Positions 1 through 63,365 of a stretch of 64,000 nucleotides of DNA are shown piece after piece. Position 1 is the first letter of the stretch; each line of letters begins with the position of its first letter. Below the pieces are notes generated by a model. That model saw only the letters and a list, made by a program, of their open reading frames with translations. It ran no database searches and was not told the DNA's origin. This DNA comes from Candidatus Adlerbacteria bacterium (lineage in GTDB: Bacteria > Patescibacteriota > Minisyncoccia > Phycocordibacterales > SBAW01). Both the position numbers and the translations under genes were made by a program. Location of the stretch: positions 107,138-171,137 of the forward strand of contig JAPLUW010000001.1 in the NCBI GenBank assembly GCA_026397405.1, in the 5' to 3' direction.

Positions 1-3000
1 GCACTGTAGGTAGTTGTTGCAACCCACTGCGGTACGCCAGCATTCCAGGTAAGTACTTGACCACCTGAACCTGTGCCAAAGAGTGATGACGTAGCAACTG
101 CGGTTGGTGCTGCTGTCCCGCCAGTTGCGTTTGCAAGTAAAGTACCTGCTGCGATTGTTGGGAAGTCGGTGTATGCCGCGGTTGAGACAACACCCGATGA
201 CGCCTTAAGGAGGCCCGTGAGTGACGTGGCGAGTGTTGTTGCACCGGTGACGTTCAAAGAGCCTAGTGTAGAGAGCCCTGTTACGCTAAGAGTTGAAGTC
301 GCTGTAACTGCCCCGCCAAAGAACGATGTCCCCGAGACATAGCTGTTGCCTTGTATTGAAAGCGCCTGAGACGGCGACGATGTGCCAATTCCCAATTTAT
401 TTGAGATGTATCCGACAAGAGCCGTTGGGTCAAACCAGAACGCTGCACTTGTTGTTGCATTGTTACCAATAGTTACAATATCCGTCGAATTGTTTGAGTA
501 GTTTATAAGTTCGCCCGGCACTTGCGATGTTGTTGTAGACCAACTTCCCCCACCCGAGCCACCGCCAGTTGCATCAAGCCCCCAACCAGGCAGACCTCCA
601 GCAACTTTCAATACGCTACCTGTGCTGCCAATTCCTAATTTTGCAAGATGGTTGGTAGCGTCTGCGTACAAAATATCTCCGGTCGTATACGACGTAATCC
701 CCGTACCGCCGTACAACGTCCCAACACTGCTTGTTGCCGACACAACACCTTGGTTTGCCTGCAATGGGCCATTGAGCGACGACGCAAGCGTTGTTTGCCC
801 AGTCACTACAAACGTACCGTTAACTGTTGAGGATGCTGCCGCAAGGAACCCTGCAGAAAATGTTTGCAGCGAACCCCAAATATTTGCGGTGGTAGTACCA
901 AACGCGAGCGACAATGTGCCGGTGTTTGTAATAGGGCCTCCAAGCAACGGATATGTTGTGGCAATGTTCGTTACTGTACCCGAACCACCTCCACCACCAC
1001 TTGGGGTGGTTGTGGAAATTATTTGTCCGTTTGCATCAACTGCAAGGAAGGCTCCCGCCGCAGTGCCGAGCGTTGGCAGTGTAAATGTTGTAGCTGCAGT
1101 AACGGCGCTGGCAAAGTATGCATTTGCCGTGGTTGTTGCACCACCGAAGATAGTAAGACCTCCACTTTGTGTGCCGCTTCCAATAGTTGAGGAAGCGAAT
1201 GCAGTAAGACCTGCATTAAATTGTGTGAGGGTTGACGTTGCATTACCCGAGAGAGCGAACGGATACCCAACATTTCCCTTATTGTTAAATGTATTCCAGT
1301 CAGTACTCGAGAGAAGTCCTCTGTTAGAAGCCGAGGCAGTCGGTAGGTTAAAGGTCAGTGTTGAACCCGAACCTGTGATGGTAAAGTCTGTTCCTGTCGT
1401 TGACGACGCAAGGGTTACGGCAGCGCCTGTTGTTGTTTGTCCTGCCGGACCAATCGATGTAAGTGCAGACGTGAGATATGTCGCTGTGTCTACCGAAAGC
1501 GTTCCGTCGCTTGATGTTTTGACAAAACCAGCAGACGCCAAGTTAGAAAGTTTACTAATGCTTTGAATACTGTTTACGTTAAATGCATTGCCGCTGTAGG
1601 TAAGGCCCGTACCTGCAGTTGTTGTGGCACCTGACGAAACAAGGCCGCCGAAGACTGCGAGGGCACCGTCTGAAAGACCTCCAATATGGAAGGTACTGTT
1701 GATTGTTGATGATGCTGTTGAGAGGAAGCCGCCATTAAATGTCAGTTGTGTTGACGTTGCATTACCTGGGAACAAATAGCTAAATACATTTGCCGAGGTT
1801 AAGTAGTCGACACCCGCAGTCGCAGTAGAGACAACTCCAGCCGTTGCCTTAAGCAGGCCACTGAGCGACGTAGCAAGTGTTGTCTGTCCTAGCACGTTCA
1901 ATGTCGAGCCAAGCGTCGTTGCACCCGTAACAGCAAGAGTGTTGTTGACTGTGGAAGATGCAGCTGCAAGAAAGCCCGACGTAAAAGTTTGCAGCGCGCT
2001 CCATGTGTTTGCAGTTGTCGTACTAAACGCCAGCGAAATAGTTCCTGCAGAATTAAGCAACGGGTACGCAAATGAAAGTGCCGACTGTTTACTGTTAAAC
2101 GTTGTAAAGTCAGCCGCAGTCAAAAGGCCGCGGTTCGATGCCGACGCAGATGGCAAGTTAAATGTATGGATGTCGCCTGCTGACGTGATAGTAAAGTCGG
2201 TACCAGCGGTAGACGTTGCAAGTGTTTGCGTTGCACCGGTTTGGGCCGTACCATACTGCGCCTTTAATCCCGATATACCGCTGCCCGAACCCCCGGCATC
2301 AGTTCCGCAACCAAATTGGCCCGTCGTCGCATCCCAGACAATTTTGTCTCCCGAGCCAATACACGACGTCGTGAGCCCTCCGCCGCGCACTGAACCTGCT
2401 ATGTACAGATTGGTTGTGGTGGCATTTGTAGTTGTTGAGTTACCAAAAATATTTCCTCCAGTAAAAACATTGTCACTATAGGTTTTTGGTATCGTTGAAG
2501 ACGCGTTGACGTAGTAGTCGGCAGACGTTGTAGAAAAACCCGAGCCGCCAGACGCAGTGAGCACTCCGTTTACAACAGAAAGCCCTGTACCCGTAAAACT
2601 TGAAATCGTGGCACCTCCAATAGTTACCCCAGAGAGCGAAATAGTGTCAGGGATGTCCGCATCAGTTAAACCGCTAACTCCATGTACGGTTACGTTTGAA
2701 AGATTATTTACTGCTTGAGAAAAATCAAAATTCCCACGAGGGCTTCCGTACCCAGGGTTTGCAATGGTGGAAATTTGCGACTGTAGTTTGTTGTTAAGTT
2801 GGTTCAACCTATCCGTAAGTTCTGTCTCGCTAATGCCGCCAACCGACACGACACGCTCAAGCGTGCGCTGGATAACAGGGTACGTATTTTGCTGGACTAC
2901 AACAGTTTTAGTGGGAGCAACTGGCGCGTCAGGGCCCGGTGCAGAACTTTGTGTTTCAGTAACTTGCTGTGGAACATATGCAGTTGGGTTTTCCGGTGCG

Positions 3001-3554
3001 ACAACATAGTGCGCTGCTGGTGCAGCAAAAAAATATGAAATTACTCGTGAGAAAAAATTACCAACCGCCGCCGCAGCGGTTTCCTCAACTGCCGCAGACA
3101 GTGCAACAGATGTTGTTGGCGTTCCAAAAAAGAGCGCACTATGTTGTGCAACAGGCACACCACCTTGCCCTAGTTGCACAGGTGCAGTCTGCACGCCGTG
3201 TGCTTTTCCGTTTTCTCCCGCAAACACAACCGAACCTAGAAGCAGCGCCGACCCTGCAGCAAAAAACAAACCCGTGCGTGCCGCACCTATAGCCCGTGCA
3301 AAAAATTGCTTTTTAATTTCGCCTGCGTGTTGTATTTTATATTCTTTATTTTCCCTACGGCGCTGGTCTGCAAGAGCCTCTGCACGAGCTACTTTTGCCA
3401 CATCTCGCATTTTTTCAAAGACAGAGATTGACTCCTGCTCTATAAACCAGGCTCCATCAACTTGTCTCCCGACAAGTTTGCCTTCACGGCAGAGTTTTGA
3501 AACGTAGTCCTGGGCGCACCCCAAACGTTCGGCCACCTTACGGGCCGAAAGCAT
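1..3554 (-). CDS. Giant repeat-rich surface protein with N-terminal excisionase-type HTH and one TM helix. Partial: continues beyond the window start.
   Basis: Continuous minus-strand reading frame from ATG at 3554 to the window edge (>1180 aa). It has no stop in the window, so it is absent from the start-to-stop ORF track. The N-terminus (MLSARKVAERLGCAQDYVSKLCREGKLVGRQVDGAWFIEQ) matches the HTH_17/excisionase pattern. A hydrophobic segment (GLFFAAGSALLLGSVVFAG) follows. After that come Gly/Thr/Ala/Ser-rich repeats of about 100 aa with the recurring motif GTDFTITxxGxxxTFNLPxASASNRGLL. The plus-strand Val/Pro-rich ORFs 73-342, 622-1566 and 1939-2481 are its antisense artefacts. Confidence 0.7.
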   Translation of the reverse strand, partial: MLSARKVAERLGCAQDYVSKLCREGKLVGRQVDGAWFIEQESISVFEKMRDVAKVARAEALADQRRRENKEYKIQHAGEIKKQFFARAIGAARTGLFFAAGSALLLGSVVFAGENGKAHGVQTAPVQLGQGGVPVAQHSALFFGTPTTSVALSAAVEETAAAAVGNFFSRVISYFFAAPAAHYVVAPENPTAYVPQQVTETQSSAPGPDAPVAPTKTVVVQQNTYPVIQRTLERVVSVGGISETELTDRLNQLNNKLQSQISTIANPGYGSPRGNFDFSQAVNNLSNVTVHGVSGLTDADIPDTISLSGVTIGGATISSFTGTGLSVVNGVLTASGGSGFSTTSADYYVNASSTIPKTYSDNVFTGGNIFGNSTTTNATTTNLYIAGSVRGGGLTTSCIGSGDKIVWDATTGQFGCGTDAGGSGSGISGLKAQYGTAQTGATQTLATSTAGTDFTITSAGDIHTFNLPSASASNRGLLTAADFTTFNSKQSALSFAYPLLNSAGTISLAFSTTTANTWSALQTFTSGFLAAASSTVNNTLAVTGATTLGSTLNVLGQTTLATSLSGLLKATAGVVSTATAGVDYLTSANVFSYLFPGNATSTQLTFNGGFLSTASSTINSTFHIGGLSDGALAVFGGLVSSGATTTAGTGLTYSGNAFNVNSIQSISKLSNLASAGFVKTSSDGTLSVDTATYLTSALTSIGPAGQTTTGAAVTLASSTTGTDFTITGSGSTLTFNLPTASASNRGLLSSTDWNTFNNKGNVGYPFALSGNATSTLTQFNAGLTAFASSTIGSGTQSGGLTIFGGATTTANAYFASAVTAATTFTLPTLGTAAGAFLAVDANGQIISTTTPSGGGGGSGTVTNIATTYPLLGGPITNTGTLSLAFGTTTANIWGSLQTFSAGFLAAASSTVNGTFVVTGQTTLASSLNGPLQANQGVVSATSSVGTLYGGTGITSYTTGDILYADATNHLAKLGIGSTGSVLKVAGGLPGWGLDATGGGSGGGSWSTTTSQVPGELINYSNNSTDIVTIGNNATTSAAFWFDPTALVGYISNKLGIGTSSPSQALSIQGNSYVSGTSFFGGAVTATSTLSVTGLSTLGSLNVTGATTLATSLTGLLKASSGVVSTAAYTDFPTIAAGTLLANATGGTAAPTAVATSSLFGTGSGGQVLTWNAGVPQWVATTTYS

Positions 3555-4013
3555 TGGTTCACCAGGTTGTGAGATTTGTGTGTTCAAGGGCGATGTATCT
3601 TTGCCTACTTAATTATTTCGGAGGCACTACACTACATTGTACGAGCAAGTTGCGTTTTATTTTTTAAAAAAAATTCAACAAACTGTGGATAGAAATAAAA
3701 ACTGAAGCGCTAGTATAAAAAATATTATTGACGCTTCGTTGAGAGTATTACTGACTGAATACCCACACTCACCTGTATTCTATTTATCTAGATATTCTTT
3801 TTAAATTTTAGAATAAGAGCAAAAAAAATAGTAAATCTCTATTAAACGAGAAGTTATGCAATATAAGGTTTTATCGTCCTGTTTAAACGATATCTCGGCT
3901 ATCAGATATTATATTTTGTTAGGAAAATACCTTCTACTTCCACTTAAGATACTCTGTTTGCATATATAGAAAAGTTCACATAGGTTCTGTACCTAGTAGG
4001 TTGTCAGGTACCT

Positions 4014-4748
4014 TTACTTATTTTGACAAGTTTTAAAAATGAAGCAGAGTGCGCCCTTCCCTGACAGAACCACACTTGCTGGTTTCCCTTTCTCAACAAT
4101 AACCGTTGTAGTAACGTTCAGCGAGCCGTACAAAGCAACTGCAAATAAAATTCCACTTAATATAAAAAAGGAAAAGGCTGACACTACTATGTTTTTATTT
4201 GATTCTTTTGCTCGTTTGGTAGACACTCTTTCTACCAAAACTTCTCTGTATATTTCTTCAGGCTCCTCCACTACGGCTAGAGGAAGAGGCCTTGTACGTC
4301 TGGAAATTGCAGGAAACAAAGGGCTCGAATCTGCAATATAGGTAAGGCCTGTTTTTTTAACTCGAGTTGCATCCAACTCTTCTGTCTCTACAGGAGACTC
4401 TTGTATAAAAACTTCTTCCACTTTTTCTTCTGGCATAACATGCAATTGAATTATATTTTTTTCTTCAAGTTCTTTTACTTCAACCTCTACGGTAAGTGGA
4501 GTCTCTTCTACAGCCACAGCAACGACAGAGGGTTTTTCAGCAGAGGTGGGAGCAGAATAGATCTTGTGCTCTTTGTTCAGATACTCTGCAAAAGATGCCT
4601 CTTCTACATACCACGCCCTGCCTACCTTGGTACCAGCAACTTTACCTGCACGTATAAGCTGGCCGATATAGTCGGAGTGGTACTTGTTTTCTTTAGCAAT
4701 ACGTTTAGACGAGATGTATCGCTTACCCGAGATTTCTAGCTCATCCAT
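4014..4748 (-). CDS. Membrane-anchored protein with N-terminal excisionase-type HTH. It is a paralogous module to the giant protein's N-terminus.
   Basis: ORF 4014-4808; the start was moved to the internal ATG (MDELEISGKRY) to clear the gatB terminator. The N-terminal HTH (IAKENKYHSDYIGQLIRAGKVAGTKVGRAWYVEE) is followed by a Glu-rich linker and a C-terminal TM helix (IVVSAFSFFILSGILFAVALYG). Confidence 0.55.
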   Translation of the reverse strand: MDELEISGKRYISSKRIAKENKYHSDYIGQLIRAGKVAGTKVGRAWYVEEASFAEYLNKEHKIYSAPTSAEKPSVVAVAVEETPLTVEVEVKELEEKNIIQLHVMPEEKVEEVFIQESPVETEELDATRVKKTGLTYIADSSPLFPAISRRTRPLPLAVVEEPEEIYREVLVERVSTKRAKESNKNIVVSAFSFFILSGILFAVALYGSLNVTTTVIVEKGKPASVVLSGKGALCFIFKTCQNK

Positions 4749-4770
4749 ATACAGAGTAGTATACAGTATC

Positions 4771-4801
4771 AAAAAAACTCGGGTTACCCCCGAGTTTTTT
4801 T
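4771..4801 (-). terminator. Rho-independent terminator downstream of gatB
   Basis: An A-run, then the stem ctcggg/cccgag with loop ttacc, then a T-run. It is symmetric, so it could terminate either strand. Confidence 0.6.
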
Positions 4802-4819
4802 GATACATTTTGATATCTC

Positions 4820-6181
4820 CTACTTCAGAGCCTTTTTAAATTCCTCGGCCAATGTGCCTGGGTTTGCGGAGCCCTTGGTCTCCTTCATGCCTTGCCCTAC
4901 TAAAAATTGAAGTACCGCTTCCTTCCCTGCTCTGTACTCTGCAACCACTGCAGGGTTTGCATCAACTATTTTTTGAACAAGCGCCGGGAGCGTACTCTCG
5001 TCTATAGTTGCAACCAATGTGCCAGCAAGAATCGATGCCTTTGCTTGCGGCGATGCCAACTTCCCTTCAGCATATTTTTCTACCACCTCAATGATAAGTT
5101 CAGCGCGCGGCAACCATTCTGGTTTTTTCTTTCGCTGTCCGGCAATGTCGTTGAGTATAAAGTTTGCAGCGATTTTGAGTAGTTCGGGTTGTGTCAATTT
5201 TTTTTCTATCTCTGTAAATAGCACCGACAACTCAAAGTCGCCCACCAACTGCTCGATGTCTTGCTCTTGTAAAAATCCGAGACTCTTCAAACGCTCGCGT
5301 TTTTGCCACGGCAGTTCAGGTAACTCTTTTGTAATAGAGTCGGTAGAAAATTCTGGTAGTTCCGACAGCACGAGTTTTGGGAGGTCGGGGTCCGGGAAAT
5401 AGCGGTAGTCGTGACTCGACTCTTTTTTACGTTGAGAGAAAGTTGTCTGGTTCCCTTCATTCCACCCGCGGGTCTCCTGCACGACCTGTCCCCCACCTTC
5501 AAGTACCTCGACTTGCCGAGCAATTTCAAATGCGATAGCTCGCTCAACCGAGCGAAACGAGTTAAGGTTTTTAACTTCCACTTTTGTACCGAAGGTATCT
5601 GTCTTGCTGACAGAAATATTGGCCTCGACACGCATCTCGCCTTTTTCCATATTTGCCTCCGAGGCACCTAGGTAGCGAAGCAGCAACTGCAACTCGCGAG
5701 CAAACGCACCAGCGTCTTCTGCGGTGTGTATCACGGGCTCAGTCACAAGTTCCATCAATGGCACACCTGCGCGGTTAAAGTCTACGAGACTCGTCTCGCC
5801 GACATGCTGCGAACGCGCTGTGTCCTCTTCTAGATGGATACGGGTAATCTCTATCCCCTTCAGCGACCCGCCTTGCACTAGCGGGTATGCAAATTGGCTA
5901 ATTTGATATCCCTTTGGGATGTCTGGGTAAAAATAACTCTTACGGTCAAACTCGGTATAGTCAGCAAGTTTTGAGCCAAGCGCCACGCCCATACGCAACA
6001 CGTGGCTGACGGCCGCTTTGTTTATAACGGGCAGTGTCCCTGGGTGCGCCATACACACAGGACAGATGTTCACGTTTGGACCCTTTTCGTCCGCATTATT
6101 TAGGCACCCACAAAACATCTTGGTGTGGGTGTTCAGTTCGGCATGTATTTCCAAGCCTATTGTGGGCCTATATTCGCTCAT
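4820..6181 (-). CDS. gatB: Asp-tRNA(Asn)/Glu-tRNA(Gln) amidotransferase subunit B
   Basis: 453 aa starting MSEYRPTIGLEIHAELNT...FCGC, full length with a GatB/GatE-like catalytic N-terminus and a GatB/YqeY C-terminal domain. Confidence 0.9.
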   Translation of the reverse strand: MSEYRPTIGLEIHAELNTHTKMFCGCLNNADEKGPNVNICPVCMAHPGTLPVINKAAVSHVLRMGVALGSKLADYTEFDRKSYFYPDIPKGYQISQFAYPLVQGGSLKGIEITRIHLEEDTARSQHVGETSLVDFNRAGVPLMELVTEPVIHTAEDAGAFARELQLLLRYLGASEANMEKGEMRVEANISVSKTDTFGTKVEVKNLNSFRSVERAIAFEIARQVEVLEGGGQVVQETRGWNEGNQTTFSQRKKESSHDYRYFPDPDLPKLVLSELPEFSTDSITKELPELPWQKRERLKSLGFLQEQDIEQLVGDFELSVLFTEIEKKLTQPELLKIAANFILNDIAGQRKKKPEWLPRAELIIEVVEKYAEGKLASPQAKASILAGTLVATIDESTLPALVQKIVDANPAVVAEYRAGKEAVLQFLVGQGMKETKGSANPGTLAEEFKKALK

Positions 6182-6211
6182 TTCCTTACTATACTACCGC
6201 AAACCAGGGCT

Positions 6212-7183
6212 TTATGCAGACAGAGTTGCCACAAGGGTGTCGCGAAATTCTTTTACCGACTCATCGTCCAAAATAGACAGAATACTCACCTGCTTGCCTT
6301 CGTGTATAAAAAGCTCTTTTATTTCTTGTATATAGAGAGGATCTCGGGTATCCGACTTGGTCAAAACGATTATTTCTGGGTTTGTCACAAGTGCTCCCTG
6401 TTCAAACCGAGATAACTCGTCACGGATAACTTGATAGTCTTCAAGCGGAGTATCCGACTCGAGTGAGACGCAGTGCACAAGAAGCCGTGTGCGGGAAATG
6501 TGGCGAAGAAATTTAAACCCCAAACCCTTCCCCGAAGAAGCTCCTTCGATAATACCGGGAATGTCTGCAAGTACCAGGCCGTACAAGGCTCCCAAGTTTG
6601 GGTCGAGAGTAGTAAATGCATACGAACCAACTTTTGCCGACGCTCCTGTAAGCGCGTTCAAGAGCGACGACTTACCTGCGTTTGGCAACCCTATAAGCCC
6701 GGCATCGGCAAACAAACGCAACTCGATATGCAGTTGTGCTACTTCGCCACGGGCGCCCGGCATGCTCTCCATGGGGCTTTGGTTTGTCGACGACTTAAAT
6801 GCCGTGTTCCCTGCCCCGCCACGGCCGCCTTTCAAAATAAGTATTTGCTGACCTTCGTTTACAAGCTCAAACTCTTCACCTGTTGTCTTATTACGCACAA
6901 TCGAGCCTACAGGCAAGTCCAGATAAAAATCCTTACCTCCGGCACCTTCTTTGTTGCGGTTACCTCCTTCGTCACCATCGTCTGCTTCAAACTTTTTCTC
7001 ACCCCGGTAGCGGGCAAGGAGGTTGATGTCACGTACACCGCGTATATAAAAATCTCCGCCATCGCCGCCGTTACCCCCGGCTGGGCCCGAATATTCTTGG
7101 GACTTTAAGTGCAACCAGCGGACAACACCATTGCCACCGTTACCCGCCCGCGCGGCTATTGTTAATTCATCGACAAAAGACAT
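6212..7183 (-). CDS. obg: GTPase Obg/CgtA
   Basis: Gly-rich Obg fold N-terminus (GNGGNGVVRW, GGNGGDGG). The G domain has GLIGLPNAGKSSLLNALT and DIPGIIEGA. Confidence 0.9.
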   Translation of the reverse strand: MSFVDELTIAARAGNGGNGVVRWLHLKSQEYSGPAGGNGGDGGDFYIRGVRDINLLARYRGEKKFEADDGDEGGNRNKEGAGGKDFYLDLPVGSIVRNKTTGEEFELVNEGQQILILKGGRGGAGNTAFKSSTNQSPMESMPGARGEVAQLHIELRLFADAGLIGLPNAGKSSLLNALTGASAKVGSYAFTTLDPNLGALYGLVLADIPGIIEGASSGKGLGFKFLRHISRTRLLVHCVSLESDTPLEDYQVIRDELSRFEQGALVTNPEIIVLTKSDTRDPLYIQEIKELFIHEGKQVSILSILDDESVKEFRDTLVATLSA

Positions 7184-7337
7184 GTTAAAAACCCTTGTAC
7201 AACCACCAGGCTATAAGGACAAGCGCCACAAGTGCGACTACCTTAAACAAGGGCTTTACAAGGAATTTGAGCACTAAAAACCCCACAACAACTAGTATTC
7301 CGATAGTGAGCCACGACATACGTTATATGCTAGCAGG

Positions 7338-8093
7338 TTACAAGTACCGGAGCAACGCATCTGCCCCGAATGTCCTGCACAACTCCGCTACCCACTCGGC
7401 AAACACTCCCATATATCCAACCATCATAGAAAGGCCAAATACTACAAGGAGCCCGCCTGCGAGTTTTGAAAGGAGCGTAATGCTACCCTGCATACGTGCA
7501 AAAAATTTCCCTGCGCTTCCTATTAAAAAAGCAGTAAGTAAAAATGGGATACCGAGCCCTAGGGAAAATACGGCGAGCAAAAGCGCGCCTTGTACGGAAG
7601 TTGCAGAGCTAGAGGCAAACAAAAGCACCGTCCCTAAAATTGGCCCGACGCACGGTGTCCACCCCAGCGCAAACAGCACACCTATTACAAAAGAACTTTC
7701 AGGCCGGCCAACAGTGATAAAGTGCGGCGTGCGTATACGTTTTTCAGACAACAACACTGGGATTTTAAGCACCCCGAGCATCGTCAGCCCAAAAAGTATA
7801 ATCACCGCCCCAGCGGCACGGCTTATAAACGGGCGCCAGGCCCCGAGTGTGCCCCCAAGAGTCGCAGCAAACAACCCCAATATAATAAATACAACAGAAA
7901 ACCCGAGTACAAAAAACAGTGCGTTACGCATCACACGCCTGCGACTTTCAGTAAACCCAGTTTTTGCTAACTCACGCTCTGGCACGCCCGCAATAAACGC
8001 CAAATACCCAGGGATTATCGGCAGTGTGCACGGAGCTAAAAACATTAATACACCTGCCAGAAATGCTGCAGGGGTTAGCGCGAATGCATCCAT
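7338..8093 (-). CDS. ccdA: Cytochrome c-type biogenesis / thiol-disulfide transporter CcdA (DsbD family) membrane protein
   Basis: Six predicted TM helices. A conserved Cys sits in the LAPCTLPIIPGYL and WTPCVGPILG motifs typical of CcdA/DsbD. Confidence 0.8.
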   Translation of the reverse strand: MDAFALTPAAFLAGVLMFLAPCTLPIIPGYLAFIAGVPERELAKTGFTESRRRVMRNALFFVLGFSVVFIILGLFAATLGGTLGAWRPFISRAAGAVIILFGLTMLGVLKIPVLLSEKRIRTPHFITVGRPESSFVIGVLFALGWTPCVGPILGTVLLFASSSATSVQGALLLAVFSLGLGIPFLLTAFLIGSAGKFFARMQGSITLLSKLAGGLLVVFGLSMMVGYMGVFAEWVAELCRTFGADALLRYL

Positions 8094-8506
8094 GCGTCTA
8101 TTCTACCGCGAACACTAGTCAAAAACTCGCGGTCTTTTGGGTGGGTCAACATCTCGGTTGCTTCGTCGAGTGTGACATAACGAGCCTCAGTAACCTCGCT
8201 GTCGTGAGGCTGGAGTGCGTGTTGCTTAGTAGTGCAGAGAAATAATGTTTTCTTTTGTAGGCCCCATTCTATATGCTCGCCTATCCCATCTTTTCCTATC
8301 GAAGATCGCTCGTACGAGCCGAGTTCTTCTACAAACTCTAGTTGTGTAATGCCCGCTTCTTCATATATTTCTCGAGTAGCAGCTTGCGCAGACGTCTCCC
8401 CCTCCTCTACTCCACCCTTAGGGAACGACCACGAATTACCGTGTTGAAATACAAGCACAATACGCCCGTCCGGCCCCACGACAATTCCTCCTGCACTTTC
8501 TCGCAT
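8075..8506 (-). CDS. NUDIX hydrolase
   Basis: Nudix box GGVEEGETSAQAATREIYEEAGI in a 143-aa protein. Confidence 0.8.
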   Translation of the reverse strand: MRESAGGIVVGPDGRIVLVFQHGNSWSFPKGGVEEGETSAQAATREIYEEAGITQLEFVEELGSYERSSIGKDGIGEHIEWGLQKKTLFLCTTKQHALQPHDSEVTEARYVTLDEATEMLTHPKDREFLTSVRGRIDAWMHSR

Positions 8507-8510
8507 AGTA

Positions 8511-10988
8511 TTACTTTTTCTCGGCTGTCAGCTTCTGATGCTCCTCAGTATTTTTAAGGCCGCAGTTTTTATATTTTTTACCGGAACCACATGGGCACAT
8601 ATCATTGCGGCCAACTTCGTCAGCGACGCCGTCAGGCAATGCAGAAAGTGTAACAACCGGTGTCGGTAGTGGCGTTGGCTGCACTGCATTTTTTACCAAA
8701 CCGTCCAAAATTTCAAATACACGGGCGGCGAGCATATATTCCAGTTCTTTGTACATACGCGTACCTTCCTTACGGTACTCTGTTAGCGGGTCACGCTGGC
8801 CGTAGGCGCGCAAGTTAACGCTGCCCCGCAAGTACTCCATCGACTCCAAATGCTCCACCCACAGCATGTCGAGTGTTTGCAGGACAACATTGCGTGCAGT
8901 ACCCAAAAACTCTTCGCGACCAAATTCAACTTCTTTTTTGGACAGTAATTGCACTGCTTCTTCACTTGTAGCAGCTAATTCTTTCAATACGTCTTCAACT
9001 TCGTCGAGTGAACCGACAAGCACTTTACGGCGGCGCTCGTACACAGCACGGCGTTGCCGGTCGAGTACGTTGTCAAATTCAAGCACATGTTTGCGTGCAT
9101 CAAAGTTAAATCCTTCTATTTTTGTCTGAGCACTTTCAAGCGCACGGGTCACCAGCGAGTTTTCAATGGGCTCATCTTCCGGTATGCCAAAACGGCCCAT
9201 CAAACCTTTTATAGAATCTGGGGCAAATACACGCATCAAAGAGTCCTCGAGCGATACAAAAAACTGCGTCTCGCCTGGGTCACCTTGGCGGCCAGAGCGC
9301 CCTCGGAGCTGGTTGTCGATACGACGAGCTTCATGCCGCTCAGTGCCGAGCACAAACAACCCACCCATATTTTTTATCTCGTCCGACTCTTCTTTAGTTG
9401 CAGAAATTCCACCTAGTTTAATGTCCACACCACGGCCAGCCATGTTAGTTGCAACAGTAACCTTACCTTTGTGCCCAGCAGAGGCGACAATTTCGCCCTC
9501 ACGTTCGTGGTTTTTTGCATTCAAGATTTCATGCGGGACGCCTTCTGTTTTTAAATATGCAGAAAGGAGTTCGTTCTTTTCAATAGAAACGGTGCCCACC
9601 AACACCGGCTGCCCCTTTGCATGCAGCTCTTTAATTTTGCGTGCGAGTGCTTTGAATTTACCTTGTTCCGTTTGGAAGATCTGGTCGTTGCGGTCGGCGC
9701 GCACAACGTCCCGGTTAGTCGGGATCTCTACTGTCTCCAACCCGTATACTTTATAAAATTCCTCAGCAGAGGTTTTTGCGGTACCTGTCATGCCGGCAAG
9801 CTTTTCATACAGGCGGAAATAGTTTTGGTACGTAATAGACGCAAACGTGCGCGACTCTTTTTGTACGGGAACATGTTCTTTTGCCTCAATTGCCTGGTGC
9901 AAGCCTTCCGACCAACGACGGCCCGGCTGCATGCGGCCTGTAAACTCGTCGACAATAATAACTTCCCCATTTTTTACCACATAGCTTTTGTCGCGCATAA
10001 ACAATGCGCGTGCGCGAACAGCAGTTTCTAAATGGTGCACATACTTGATACCTTTTTCGGTGTAGATATTTTCTATACCCAACAATTTTTCTGCATGTTC
10101 AATACCAGTATCGGTGAGTTGTATCGCTTTTTGTTTTTCGTCGACGGTGTAGTCAGTGTCAGAGTTTAACTTGGCAGCAATGTCGGCAAATTGCCGGTAC
10201 AAGTCTTCCGACTCCTGCGCAGGCGCCGAAATAATAAGTGGAGTGCGCGCTTCGTCAATTAAAATCGAGTCGATTTCGTCGACAATAGCAAAATAGTGTC
10301 CGCGCTGACGCAGCTCGTTTGAATTGTACGAAATATTATCGCGCAGATAGTCGAACCCAAATTCGCTATTAGTGCCGTATGTGATGTCTGCTTCGTATGC
10401 CTCGCGCCGTGAACACGGGCGCAAAAATTCGTACAATACACGGAAGCTTCCTTCTTCGTCACGTATCGCATCATTTTCCGAATGTGATGCATCATAGACA
10501 TACGACGCATCCCCGTTAATAACACCGAGCGACATTCCCAGTGCGGCATATACCTGCCCCATCCACACAGCATCGCGCCGTGCGAGATAGTCGTTAACAG
10601 TAATAACGTGGACTCCTTTTCCCGCAAGAGCATTTAAGTATGCAGGGAGTGTTGCGACAAGCGTCTTACCTTCACCTGTCTTCATTTCGGCAATGCCGCG
10701 GTTGTTGAGCACTATACCGCCGACCATCTGTACATCAAACGGGCGCAAATGCAGGGTACGGCGTGCACTTTCCCGCACTGCAGCAAAAGCTTCTGGCAAC
10801 AAGGCGTCAAGTGTTTCGCCCCGCTCAAGGCGTAGGCGAAATTCTACAGTCTTACCTGTAAGGGTCGTGTCTGAATAGGCCTGATATTCAGCCTCGAGAG
10901 CGCCTATGGCAGAAACTGTTTTTTGGCTCTCTGCAATGACCTTTTTACTGGAATCACCAAAGAGGCTGCTAAGCGAAAACATGTGCAC
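8511..10988 (-). CDS. secA: Preprotein translocase ATPase SecA
   Basis: 825 aa with DEAD-like motor motifs and preprotein cross-linking and scaffold domains. The C-terminal zinc-binding tail is CPCGSGKKYKNCG. Confidence 0.95.
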   Translation of the reverse strand: MHMFSLSSLFGDSSKKVIAESQKTVSAIGALEAEYQAYSDTTLTGKTVEFRLRLERGETLDALLPEAFAAVRESARRTLHLRPFDVQMVGGIVLNNRGIAEMKTGEGKTLVATLPAYLNALAGKGVHVITVNDYLARRDAVWMGQVYAALGMSLGVINGDASYVYDASHSENDAIRDEEGSFRVLYEFLRPCSRREAYEADITYGTNSEFGFDYLRDNISYNSNELRQRGHYFAIVDEIDSILIDEARTPLIISAPAQESEDLYRQFADIAAKLNSDTDYTVDEKQKAIQLTDTGIEHAEKLLGIENIYTEKGIKYVHHLETAVRARALFMRDKSYVVKNGEVIIVDEFTGRMQPGRRWSEGLHQAIEAKEHVPVQKESRTFASITYQNYFRLYEKLAGMTGTAKTSAEEFYKVYGLETVEIPTNRDVVRADRNDQIFQTEQGKFKALARKIKELHAKGQPVLVGTVSIEKNELLSAYLKTEGVPHEILNAKNHEREGEIVASAGHKGKVTVATNMAGRGVDIKLGGISATKEESDEIKNMGGLFVLGTERHEARRIDNQLRGRSGRQGDPGETQFFVSLEDSLMRVFAPDSIKGLMGRFGIPEDEPIENSLVTRALESAQTKIEGFNFDARKHVLEFDNVLDRQRRAVYERRRKVLVGSLDEVEDVLKELAATSEEAVQLLSKKEVEFGREEFLGTARNVVLQTLDMLWVEHLESMEYLRGSVNLRAYGQRDPLTEYRKEGTRMYKELEYMLAARVFEILDGLVKNAVQPTPLPTPVVTLSALPDGVADEVGRNDMCPCGSGKKYKNCGLKNTEEHQKLTAEKK

Positions 10989-11349
10989 AGAATAACATAT
11001 TGCGTATTTTTTTGCCCGAGAAACGCCATAAAGAAAAATCCTCCGCCTGAGGCGGAAGACTTTTCTTTCGAGAGGATCAACGTTTTCAATTATATATTGA
11101 AAACGGAAACGCGACTATTTGCGCTTCTTTTTTGCTGCTTTCTTTTTCTTTGCTGCCATAATTTTGGCGACTCGCGTCGCAAGTTGTCTGGACATCGACC
11201 GACCTTGTGTATGTTTGTCCGCGGACAAGGGCATATACAATCTCGATGCTCTACATACAAGTATCGAATACATACGACACAGATACAATGAAAAATATTT
11301 TTATTCTGTGGATAACTTTTTATTTTTTTAAATTTAAAAAAATAAAAAA

Positions 11350-29892: not shown

Positions 29893-30912
29893 CTAGCTGT
29901 GCATGTCTTTGAGGCCGAGCAAAAAATCTTTATGTTGCAAAAACCAGCTCGCAAATTCCGGCAAGCCTTTTTCAAGCGGAACTTGTGCCGAAACTCCCAA
30001 CTCGCGCTTTGCTTTGGCACCCGACGCGCGTGTCATCATGACGTCGCCTTGTTGGTGTGGGAGTAATTGTGTTTTAGCAACCACGTTAAGCTCTTTTGAG
30101 AGCAGCGTGAGCATCTTCTTTGTTTCAAATGTTCGCTCGTCACCGAGGTTATATATAGTATGCCCGCTCTGTATGCGGTCGAGCGCACGAAGAATGCCGT
30201 CTACAACCAGAGAAATATGCGTATAACTTCGCTTGCCCTTTCCTTCGGCATACAACGGGATAGTTTTACCCAACAGTAGCAAACGGGCAAATTTAAACAT
30301 TGCTAAGTCGGTGCGCATCCAAGGTCCGTATACGGTAAAAAACCGCAAGCCTGTCATAGGAATGCCGTATAGCCGGTTGTATGTTGCAGCAATTACTTCA
30401 ACATCTTTTTTTGTCGCAGCATATAACGACACGGGAGTGTCCGTTGGGTCGCTTTCTTTAAATGTGCCTTCGCGCTCGCCGTAAATAGAACTCGACGACG
30501 CGTATACAACCGGGGTCTTGTCTACACGCGCCGCCTCAAACACATTTAAACTGCCCAGTACGTTAGCGGTGATGTAGGATTGCGGGTTTTCGTGACTATA
30601 ACGCACACCTGCCTGTGCCGCCAGGTGGATAATGGCGCGAGGTTTTTCTTTATCCACAAGTTTTTTAAATGCTGGAGCCTGTGCGAGAGATCCTTTTACA
30701 AAAGAAAATTTTTTGTCTGTTGTCAGTAGGCCTAACCTTTTTTCTTTAAGCTTTGGGTCGTTATAGGAAGTCATCGCATCAAAACCAATTACCCGCTCGC
30801 CGCGGGCAAGGAGTGCTTTACACACATGCATACCAATAAACCCAGCTGCGCCGGTTACAAGGATTGGTCGTGTGTCTTTTTTTAGAGTGTTTGTAGCCAT
30901 CGGTTTGTCCAT
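29893..30912 (-). CDS. NAD-dependent epimerase/dehydratase (UDP-glucuronate 4-epimerase-like)
   Basis: ILVTGAAGFIGMHVCKAL Rossmann motif with CapI/WbpP-like length and motifs. Confidence 0.8.
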   Translation of the reverse strand: MDKPMATNTLKKDTRPILVTGAAGFIGMHVCKALLARGERVIGFDAMTSYNDPKLKEKRLGLLTTDKKFSFVKGSLAQAPAFKKLVDKEKPRAIIHLAAQAGVRYSHENPQSYITANVLGSLNVFEAARVDKTPVVYASSSSIYGEREGTFKESDPTDTPVSLYAATKKDVEVIAATYNRLYGIPMTGLRFFTVYGPWMRTDLAMFKFARLLLLGKTIPLYAEGKGKRSYTHISLVVDGILRALDRIQSGHTIYNLGDERTFETKKMLTLLSKELNVVAKTQLLPHQQGDVMMTRASGAKAKRELGVSAQVPLEKGLPEFASWFLQHKDFLLGLKDMHS

Positions 30913-42897: not shown

Positions 42898-44719
<1,822 letters not shown>

Positions 44720-57615: not shown

Positions 57616-57730
57616 GTCCTGGCGACTACCTACTCTCGCGGCCGGTAAAGGCCACTACCATCGGCGCAAATGAGCTTAACTTCCGTGTTCGGAATGAGAA
57701 CGGGTGTGACCCCATCGCCAAGTCACCAAG
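57616..57730 (-). rRNA. rrf: 5S ribosomal RNA
   Basis: Reverse complement reads CTTGGTGACTTGGCGATGGGGTCACACCCGTTCTCATTCCGAACACGGAAGTTAAGC...GTAGTCGCCAGG, about 115 nt, 3' of the 23S. Confidence 0.9.
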
Positions 57731-57851: not shown

Positions 57852-61158
<3,307 letters not shown>

Positions 61159-63215: not shown

Positions 63216-63365
63216 GCAAAGCTATTTCGTAGATAATGACCGAACTCGTGCCCCGTACCACATTTCAATGTTCTGCTGTCTACCTATAAAAACTCGTCTT
63301 TCCTAGAAAAGGTTTCAGGCTCCCCTAACCTCCTATAAAAGTTATCCACAGGTGCCTAAACACAC

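Follow-up and report, generated by a model that had tools for sequence, protein, structure and literature searches.

ToxR, CadC and TcpP consist of an N-terminal cytoplasmic winged-helix domain of the DNA-binding type (OmpR/PhoB-type in ToxR and CadC), one transmembrane (TM) helix and a C-terminal extracytoplasmic domain that acts as a compact sensor, and operator-like sites adjoin the gene. The same bitopic, three-part plan, with a helix-turn-helix (HTH) domain at a cytoplasmic N-terminus, is found in RodZ, whose XRE-type HTH_25 domain is accompanied by DUF4115 and binds a protein, MreB, rather than DNA. RsgI-type anti-sigma factors, SEAL proteins and Notch-like receptors are also bitopic, and turn an extracellular mechanical or binding event into a transcription response; SEAL domains are reportedly autoproteolytic, mechanosensitive ecto-domains coupled to intramembrane proteolysis in bacteria. 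Xis and BldC are small, soluble winged HTH (wHTH) proteins that bind cooperatively to repeat arrays without a dimerisation domain. Here we describe a pair of adjacent genes in a 64,000-nucleotide (nt) stretch of DNA (hereafter the window) from Candidatus Adlerbacteria bacterium (assembly GCA_026397405.1, contig JAPLUW010000001.1, positions 107,138-171,137), which encode a small protein and a giant, fibre-like protein sharing an N-terminal head that is predicted to be a wHTH of the Xis/MerR type.

The initial annotation of this DNA had suggested for the pair a ToxR/CadC-like plan with an excisionase-type HTH. The topology agrees, as hydropathy and a charge bias over 280 relatives support a single TM helix and a cytoplasmic N-terminus in both proteins, but the family membership does not, since neither protein has an OmpR/PhoB-type (Trans_reg_C) match in Pfam or NCBIfam at E≤1, nor a recognisable sensor domain. 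The heads are instead HTH_17-like; in place of a compact sensor there are 2,500-5,700 amino acids (aa) of fibre-like repeats, which in the window protein have no Pfam match and resemble tail fibres or adhesins; a second, small HTH/TM gene accompanies the large one; and the operator-like sites adjoining the genes are putative. RodZ shares the three-part plan and the N-in HTH, but neither HTH_25 nor DUF4115 was detected in the window proteins. With Xis, BldC and the N-terminal domain of MerR (HTH_17; structures 4j2n, 6amk and 6ama) the heads appear to share both fold and sequence family, and array binding of the Xis/BldC kind would suit the clustered CGAGAT half-sites described below; unlike these soluble proteins, however, the heads are membrane-tethered, and one is fused to a giant exported protein. 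Compared with RsgI, SEAL and Notch-like proteins, no autoproteolytic domain or protease partner was found at this locus, and the cytoplasmic part is an HTH rather than an anti-sigma domain. The pair would add an Xis/MerR-type fold to the few known membrane-tethered HTH architectures.

The Patescibacteria, which account for much of bacterial diversity, spend their lives attached to other cells and possess few regulators; to our knowledge, little has been learned about how they sense and control attachment. The NCBI pipeline already labels the giant protein as HTH-containing, and a full-text literature search that covered few subscription journals turned up no account of giant Patescibacteria proteins bearing an HTH-TM head, nor of the gene pair or its motifs. 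We report that the pair is a conserved two-gene surface module of Paceibacteria-type Patescibacteria, kept in at least 70 species by vertical inheritance and distributed throughout the class, and that its retention together with its control DNA suggests a direct link between the cell surface and gene control. From the module follows a specific hypothesis, of surface-to-genome signalling or of control over fibre dosage in Patescibacteria; short recombinant domains and oligonucleotides would suffice to test it, and no culture of the organism is needed.

A two-gene module with a shared head

A scan of one genome per GTDB species gave 80 loci, labelled Adlerbacteria, Nomurabacteria, Kaiserbacteria, Giovannonibacteria, Minisyncoccia and Paceibacterota, and by some submitters Saccharibacteria. 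In 70 of them gatB is followed by the small gene and then by a second head-bearing open reading frame (ORF), the remaining ten being mostly cut by contig ends; the second ORFs encode 299-3,118 aa where they are complete, and in many cases more than 3,000 aa where they are truncated. The genes upstream of the small gene on the same strand of the window are gatB, obg, those for a DsbD_TM protein and a NUDIX protein, and secA, and four distant homologues of the small protein (36-43% identity; loci L013-L016) share the order secA ... dsbD_TM-(small membrane protein)-obg-gatB-small gene-spacer-giant gene, with spacers of about 394-499 nt and giants of 2,307, at least 1,462, 5,279 and 4,660 aa. The small protein has 528 homologues, all of about 200-300 aa. 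A profile of the first ~300 residues of the giant protein (head, TM helix and a juxtamembrane ecto-module) was searched against 1.84 billion representatives, and matched 3,167 protein clusters at E≤1e-3 and 65 at E≤1e-30. Among the best 150 of these 3,167 clusters, 34 are at least 1,000 aa long (up to 5,777 aa), and each of these has either a single head or two in tandem. By hydropathy, 32 of the 34 have a TM segment within their first ~250 residues, and the remainder of every large member is rich in Thr, Gly, Ser and Ala. In P0172 the head, at residues 496-563, comes after five TM helices, and in two large members no segment is above threshold. The joining of the HTH-TM head to giant repeat proteins is thus found in dozens of giants. 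A different arrangement was seen in one groundwater lineage (relatives L005, L006 and L009), in which the head-bearing second gene encodes just 316-353 aa and is followed by a gene for a 432-440-aa secreted protein with a C-terminus that looks dockerin-repeat-like by eye, and further by genes for two membrane-anchored proteins (277 and 333 aa) and a third HTH-head protein of 90-99 aa without a TM helix; this could be a split or alternative form of the module.

The giant ORF lies on the minus strand and is open from the window edge up to position 3608. It had been noted as an ORF of more than 1,180 aa cut at the edge; Logan contig SRR20698643_1086 (L001), which has no mismatches to window positions 1-11346, supplies the complete gene as a single uninterrupted ORF with no frameshifts, encoding 2,640 aa from ATG 3554 (the NCBI model, preceded by GGTGA) or 2,651 aa from TTG 3587 (a gene caller, +11 aa). 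The protein is identical to NCBI P0128, 'helix-turn-helix domain-containing protein [Candidatus Adlerbacteria bacterium]', which is encoded by a contig of 495,613 bp. As 47 of 61 relatives start 14 codons 5' of the codon at which the conserved MLSAR begins, the TTG may be the true start here. For the small gene, another gene caller gives an ORF of 264 aa; the 244-aa start is favoured because the longer ORF would traverse the terminator-like hairpin directly after gatB.

The two heads are related to each other, with 31% identity over 45 residues in blastp (giant protein P1, residues 2-46, against small protein P2, residues 12-56; E 7e-7), and with a probability of 97.5% (E 5.6e-12) in an hhalign comparison of their family profiles. 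The top Pfam match of both window proteins is HTH_17 (PF12728), at 18-20.8 bits against a gathering score of 27. At E≤0.01 it is the sole Pfam family matched by 25 of 40 small-protein members (best 2.3e-5) and by 2 of 7 giant-type N-termini (best 2.1e-6), and precomputed PF12728 matches are available for relatives, among them P0002, P0072, P0122 and many giants. The small protein also matches 'excisionase' in PHROGs (E 9.5e-5), and sequence searches of the PDB gave no match for the giant protein, the small protein or the small-protein profile. In an AlphaFold2 (AF2) model of the small protein built from 40 homologues, residues 1-61 fold in the order strand-strand-helix-helix-strand-strand-helix, an HTH with a beta-hairpin wing, with a predicted local distance difference test (pLDDT) score above 90. 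Foldseek matched this model to Xis of mycobacteriophage Pukovnik (4j2n; TM-score 0.70 on the target, root mean square deviation 1.7 Å, probability 1.0) and to BldC (6amk/6ama; TM-scores 0.72-0.78), as well as to TraN and the DNA-binding domain of pSK1 Par, with E-values (0.05-0.9) that are weak, as expected for a domain of ~50 residues; all of these closest named structural neighbours are DNA binders. The fold is assigned by the model for the small head, and the giant head is tied to it through the hhalign match. Because HTH_17, although below threshold, is the only family matched, and because the fold matches too, both heads are, on this modelling, a divergent subfamily of the excisionase/MerR-type wHTH, in agreement with the common excisionase-type HTH that the initial annotation had read at both N-termini; their binding of DNA is putative.

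The residues invariant in giant-type heads are MLSAR, C13, DY, KLCREGKL and W36. The small head varies hardly at all in its recognition helix and wing (D26 Y27 G29 Q30 L31 R33 K41 G43 R44 W46), and the consensus MDELEISGKRY...DYIGQLIR.GK...KVGRAWYV is kept across lineages in which overall protein identity is only 34-45%. Two Cys residues of the giant head, at aa 13 and 22 (CxxDYxxKLC; window ~3489-3518), are invariant in seven aligned giant-type heads and absent in small-protein heads. The two residues might conceivably serve in redox chemistry or bind a metal, and the syntenic genes include a CcdA-like dsbD_TM. Tandem double heads ahead of the TM helix were seen in about eleven giants (P0210, P0140, P0142, P0134, P0131, P0247, P0204, P0269, P0221, P0214 and P0205), and the small genes of L090 and L094-L096 likewise encode two tandem heads.

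Hydropathy finds one strongly hydrophobic segment in each protein. When Lys and Arg were counted in the 15 residues on either side of the TM segment in the 280 head-bearing relatives, the small proteins had a mean of 3.5 before and 0.87 after it (177 N-in, 4 reversed), and the giant proteins 2.5 and 1.0 (66 N-in, 10 reversed). So strong a positive-inside bias supports N-in bitopic proteins with cytoplasmic heads. The TM helix had been thought to follow the HTH directly in both proteins; a single helix is indeed present in each, but in the small protein an acidic, Pro-rich linker of ~120 residues, disordered in the AF2 model and holding one conserved peptide, LTYIxDxxPLFP, separates the head from a TM helix near the C-terminus, beyond which the ecto-tail is a short beta-hairpin. 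In the giant proteins, the TM helix is followed in all relatives by the juxtamembrane ecto-module LQSPFFG ... NTYPV(I/V)ERT(V/L)ERV..GIS.

From residue 150 on, the giant protein consists of 17% Thr, 13% Gly, 13% Ser and 12% Ala, and blocks of 60-170 residues are duplicated internally with 45-86% identity, as befits the giant Gly/Thr/Ala-rich repeat surface protein that had been suggested. The ASASNRGLL motif, singled out earlier as a fibre- or adhesin-like repeat, does recur, and the likeness holds, but there are only two exact copies (aa 484-492 and 754-762); GLL(S/T)xxDWxTFNNK occurs four times and (V/I)G(I/V)GTTTP nine times, the latter also in 119 of 129 giant relatives. The ectodomain has no match in Pfam or NCBIfam at E≤1 or among PDB sequences. 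Its 106 database homologues, of 1,456-4,473 aa, contain Peptidase_S74 (the tail-fibre intramolecular chaperone, PF13884), LVIVD, Bact_surface_Ig-like and Gly_rich_2 domains, and some are named 'tail fiber domain-containing protein'. Peptidase_S74 was not found in the 2,640-aa protein at E≤1, although many of its homologues have it. The protein ends instead in a different domain of ~200 residues (A3), which is conserved at the extreme C-terminus of at least 10 giants. AF2 gives low confidence for a monomer of the fibre part, and a confident beta-rich core (pLDDT 74-94) for the C-terminal domain. Against the PDB, Foldseek returned nothing significant for this core, the best local match being a cyanophage tailspike receptor-binding domain (E 0.2); against viral models (BFVD) the C-terminal model had 14 matches at E≤1e-3, with low TM-scores, all to phage or other viral proteins, the named ones being annotated tail fibre, tail or virion proteins. 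With its (V/I)G(I/V)GTTTP repeats, its homologues bearing S74, LVIVD or Ig-like domains and these viral matches, the ectodomain may reasonably be called phage-tail-fibre- or adhesin-like, although it would belong to a chromosomally encoded, membrane-anchored cell protein and not to a virion. Some homologues carry the JGI name trimeric autotransporter adhesin; no YadA-type beta-barrel anchor was found here by Pfam, the giant protein being anchored by its N-terminal TM helix.

Conserved DNA in the spacer and in the small gene

The intergenic region between the two genes had been rightly described as AT-rich; its length is 459 nt rather than 420 nt, and the median over 70 loci, measured up to the MLSAR codon, is 512 nt. 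Two inverted repeats in it had been proposed as operators. As the spacer holds 25 inverted-repeat pairs with 6-nt arms, both are within what chance alone would give, and the first is significant only because of its conservation across species: it sits on a conserved CGAGAT(A/C)TCG motif (M1), its arms (3890-3895/3904-3909) being slightly offset from the position first given. The second, for which one base of the string had been misread, is dismissed, as it is not conserved across species and occupies the place where relatives have hairpin and T-run terminators; no T-run follows it here.

When six independent spacers were compared, the only shared GC-containing words of 9-10 nt (at most one mismatch) came from TAGCCGAGATATCGG and TATCCACAG, and none of 100 shuffles yielded any. 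CGAGATMTCG is present in 46 copies in 38 kb of spacer (36 loci) and in 14 copies in 998 kb of flanks, an 86-fold enrichment, and CGAGAT in 65 of 70 spacers; in the 64-kb window, the core of M1 is the sole exact match. The CGAGAT sites occur in clusters of one to four, as palindromes or as nearby direct and inverted copies, which begin a median of 134 nt past the small-gene stop and, in relatives, beyond its hairpin and T-run terminator. The order in relatives is M1, a TATAAAT-like box and an inverted TCTCG half-site. For the second conserved motif (M2), TATCCACA, the enrichment is 31-fold; 63 of the 70 spacers contain it, in most cases at a distance of 145-156 nt upstream from the MLSAR codon. 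By eye, the layout TATCCACA-N39-42-TACAAT is seen in L001, L005 and L015. Four of eleven CGAGATMTCG-type matches outside spacers fall inside the gatB coding sequence of different species (L020:9401, L030:9386, L058:4916 and L094:8742).

A replication origin in the spacer was considered on account of the DnaA-like box; since conservation extends to just one such box in each spacer, we regard the box as promoter-proximal. A structured RNA is unlikely, because only short motifs are conserved, and an Rfam scan of the spacer gave one chance-level match only. RNA pairing of AUCUCGG at the 5' end of the small gene with CCGAGAU of the spacer was likewise judged unlikely, since in relatives the spacer sites lie beyond the small-gene terminator.

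The half-site recurs at the beginning of the small gene. A -10-like hexamer lies between -22 and -3 of the small-gene ATG in 59 of 60 loci, and because it is so near the ATG, the mRNA is probably leaderless or near-leaderless. Codons 4-10 are under strong synonymous constraint compared with gatB and obg at these loci: Ser7 is encoded by TCG in 64 of 64 (background 27%), Leu4 is CTA in 58% (5.6%), Lys9 is AAG in 84% (47%) and Arg10 is CGA or CGG in 92% (25%), and the Ser codon of the giant-gene MLSAR, taken as an internal control, shows ordinary usage. The naive probability of the Ser7 result, 4.5e-37, is an overstatement given the relatedness of the species; nevertheless, neutral synonymous sites would be saturated, as overall protein identity is only 34-45%. 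The constrained DNA, CTAGAAATMTCGGGNAAGCGR, includes ATMTCGG, the reverse complement of a CCGAKAT half-site, in 58 of 60 loci, and SCGAGA/TCTCGS lies within 60 nt upstream of the ATG in 27 of 60 loci (about 7 expected). The first few codons of a gene that probably lacks a leader would thus double as an operator-like half-site.

A third conserved element, TCATTT-N(8-16)-GTCAAA, was noticed at the 3' end of the small gene (window 4021-4043, minus strand; also in L017-L096). It is translated (CFIFKTCQN) in Adlerbacteria and lies just past the stop codon in other lineages; GTCAAA is found within 60 nt of the small-gene stop in 41 of 70 loci, and 26 of 70 have the two-part pattern, for which the background rate is 0.002 per 120 nt.

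Possible autoregulation by the heads, and its rivals

We favour, with a probability of roughly 45%, the partly inferential reading that the membrane-tethered heads autoregulate the surface-fibre module. The heads are taken as the readers of CGAGAT because they are the only DNA-binding-type domains kept with the locus, because the motif marks both genes of the pair, because the motif and the recognition helix and wing of the small head are both nearly invariant, and because the closest structural relatives, Xis and BldC, bind repeat arrays. The tethered heads would bind the CGAGAT sites, perhaps as cooperative arrays in the manner of those two proteins, and would thus act back on the transcription of the pair; how strongly the module is expressed would then be set by how much fibre and partner the membrane contains, or by their state. 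As the cells measure only a few hundred nanometres across, the tether should be no bar to reaching the chromosome.

Several points weigh against autoregulation. The link between heads and motif is founded on co-location and co-conservation; TATCCACA could be a DnaA site and CGAGAT the site of another regulator; and as the motif scan spanned the 64 kb here and ~1 Mb of flanks, a wider regulon or occurrence is possible. The Pfam scores of the heads in the window fail the gathering threshold, and the wing of the giant-type head (GxQVxGAWF) is without conserved basic residues. In addition, the head is present in 62 of the 106 ectodomain homologues, about 40% being headless, of which several have an ordinary signal-peptide-like N-terminus and others seem to be 5'-cut fragments; the ectodomain would accordingly be independent of the head, and the head an exchangeable module.

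The chief rival, though an unlikely one in our estimate, is a RodZ-like adaptor, in which the cytoplasmic heads bind a protein (a cytoskeletal, divisome or secretion component, or each other) and so anchor or position the base of the fibre, while the spacer motifs are read by other factors, TATCCACA by DnaA and CGAGAT by some regulator. The succession of HTH, TM helix and extracytoplasmic part equals the RodZ architecture, and the adaptor would suit the wing lacking conserved basic residues, the two invariant Cys of the giant-type head, the tandem heads of the ~11 giants and the peptide LTYIxDxxPLFP in the small-protein linker, a linear motif typical of protein docking. On the other hand, HTH_17 was the only match, HTH_25/XRE and DUF4115 giving no signal; the named structures nearest to the small head are those of DNA binders; and an adaptor leaves unexplained the half-site at both control regions and in the 5' codons of the small gene.

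It is improbable that the head is a passive anchor, i.e. a folded cytoplasmic plug that fixes the N-in orientation and keeps the signal-anchor uncleaved without any regulation. That homologous ectodomains bear either the head and TM helix or, several times, a signal-peptide-like N-terminus is what a plug would predict, but a plug hardly accounts for a head sequence extremely conserved between lineages so divergent overall, for a separate small protein that bears the same head with almost no ectodomain, or for tandem duplication of the head, of which it would have no need.

A more far-reaching version of tethered regulation, which we also regard as improbable, makes the giant fibre a sensor of contact or tension with a direct line to DNA: the binding of a host cell by the fibre tip would cluster the heads or free them proteolytically and so switch the CGAGAT promoters. 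In a variant, the heads would hold their own gene at the membrane, where a protein of 2,600-5,700 aa could be transcribed, translated and exported in one place beside the syntenic secA. If true, the sensor would be a Notch-like, one-protein route from cell-cell contact to transcription in episymbiotic, ultra-small bacteria. Its release form, in which the fibre binds a host and a pull or cleavage leads to intramembrane proteolysis that frees the HTH head in a Notch- or RsgI-like manner, is a long shot; the topology fits, the juxtamembrane ecto-module after the TM helix is conserved and SEAL-type ecto-domains provide bacterial precedents, but no protease gene is conserved in the neighbourhood (four relative loci), and no cleavage motif or SEAL/SEA-like domain was detected in the giant protein.

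That an excisionase gene and a tail-fibre gene of a prophage or mobile-element remnant became adjacent by chance is effectively refuted by the synteny and the in-frame fusion: the Xis-type fold and the tail-fibre-like ectodomain are both phage hallmarks, but the HTH is fused in frame to the TM helix and fibre here and in dozens of relatives, the housekeeping context (secA ... dsbD-obg-gatB) is fixed in 70 of the 80 species, no integrase or other phage genes are adjacent, and a tblastn search of one repeat segment gave no match in 50,697 phage records, to which the low-complexity filter may have contributed.

Feature coordinates and other observations in the window

Positions of the gene pair, its domains, its putative control elements and the ribosomal RNA (rRNA) features in the window
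Feature	Position	Strand	Remark
Giant gene, 5' 45% (aa 1-1184 of 2640)	1-3554	-	Complete ORF at L001:7793-15715
Giant-protein single TM helix, aa 94-114	3213-3275	-	Predicted by hydropathy; positive-inside bias in 89 giant relatives
Giant-protein head, predicted Xis/MerR-type wHTH, aa 1-45, with charged helix to aa 68	3351-3554	-	HTH_17 E 4.6e-4
AT-rich spacer, 459 nt, 32% GC	3555-4013		Equivalent spacers in relatives
TACAAT, -10-like, 42 nt downstream of M2	3636-3641	-	Inferred
Motif M2, TATCCACA, DnaA-box-like	3684-3691	-	Conserved in spacers
Promoter-like TTTAAA-16 nt-TATATT, abutting M1	3860-3887	-	Consensus scan only
Motif M1, ATATCTGATAGCCGAGATATCG, core CGAGATATCG at 3888-3897	3883-3909	-	First 'operator' of the initial annotation
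Second inverted repeat, GTACCT/AGGTAC, 11-nt loop, arms 3989-3994/4006-4011	3989-4011		Right after the small-gene stop
Small partner gene, 244 aa	4014-4748	-	Identical to NCBI NT019_00545
Small-protein TM helix, about aa 184-210	4119-4199	-	Predicted by hydropathy, AF2 and charge bias
Small-protein head, predicted wHTH, aa 1-61, pLDDT >90	4566-4748	-	AF2, Foldseek
M1 half-site ATCTCGG, codons 6-8 of the small gene	4727-4733	-	ATMTCGG in relatives
TATACT, -10-like box, 10-15 nt before the small-gene ATG	4758-4763	-	Hexamer scan of relatives
18-bp hairpin flanked by A/T runs, in the gatB-small gene interval	4766-4806		Terminator-like
rRNA region and group I intron features	43269-44719, 57617-57730, 57857-61155, 58184-58383	- (all)	

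The arms of the hairpin between gatB and the small gene hold CTCGGG/CCCGAG, which is similar to a CGAGAT-type half-site, and only 18 nt separate the hairpin from the small-gene ATG, with 3 nt between the hairpin and the -10-like box of that gene; terminator and operator may be combined in it. Perfect DnaA-box 9-mers, TTATCCACA, occur elsewhere in the window at 11306-11314 (minus strand), 30650-30658 (plus strand) and 63342-63350 (plus strand), and the corresponding 8-mer has four copies in the window against 1.2 expected. One of the 9-mers lies ~320 nt upstream of secA, in an AT-rich spacer, and another precedes, by 25 nt, a terminator-like hairpin close to the end of the window; they may represent a shared promoter-proximal element or mark DnaA-controlled genes. 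Farther along the window, the 16S rRNA gene is parted from the 23S-5S genes by ~13 kb of protein genes, and a group I intron is present within the 23S gene (62 bits in Rfam).

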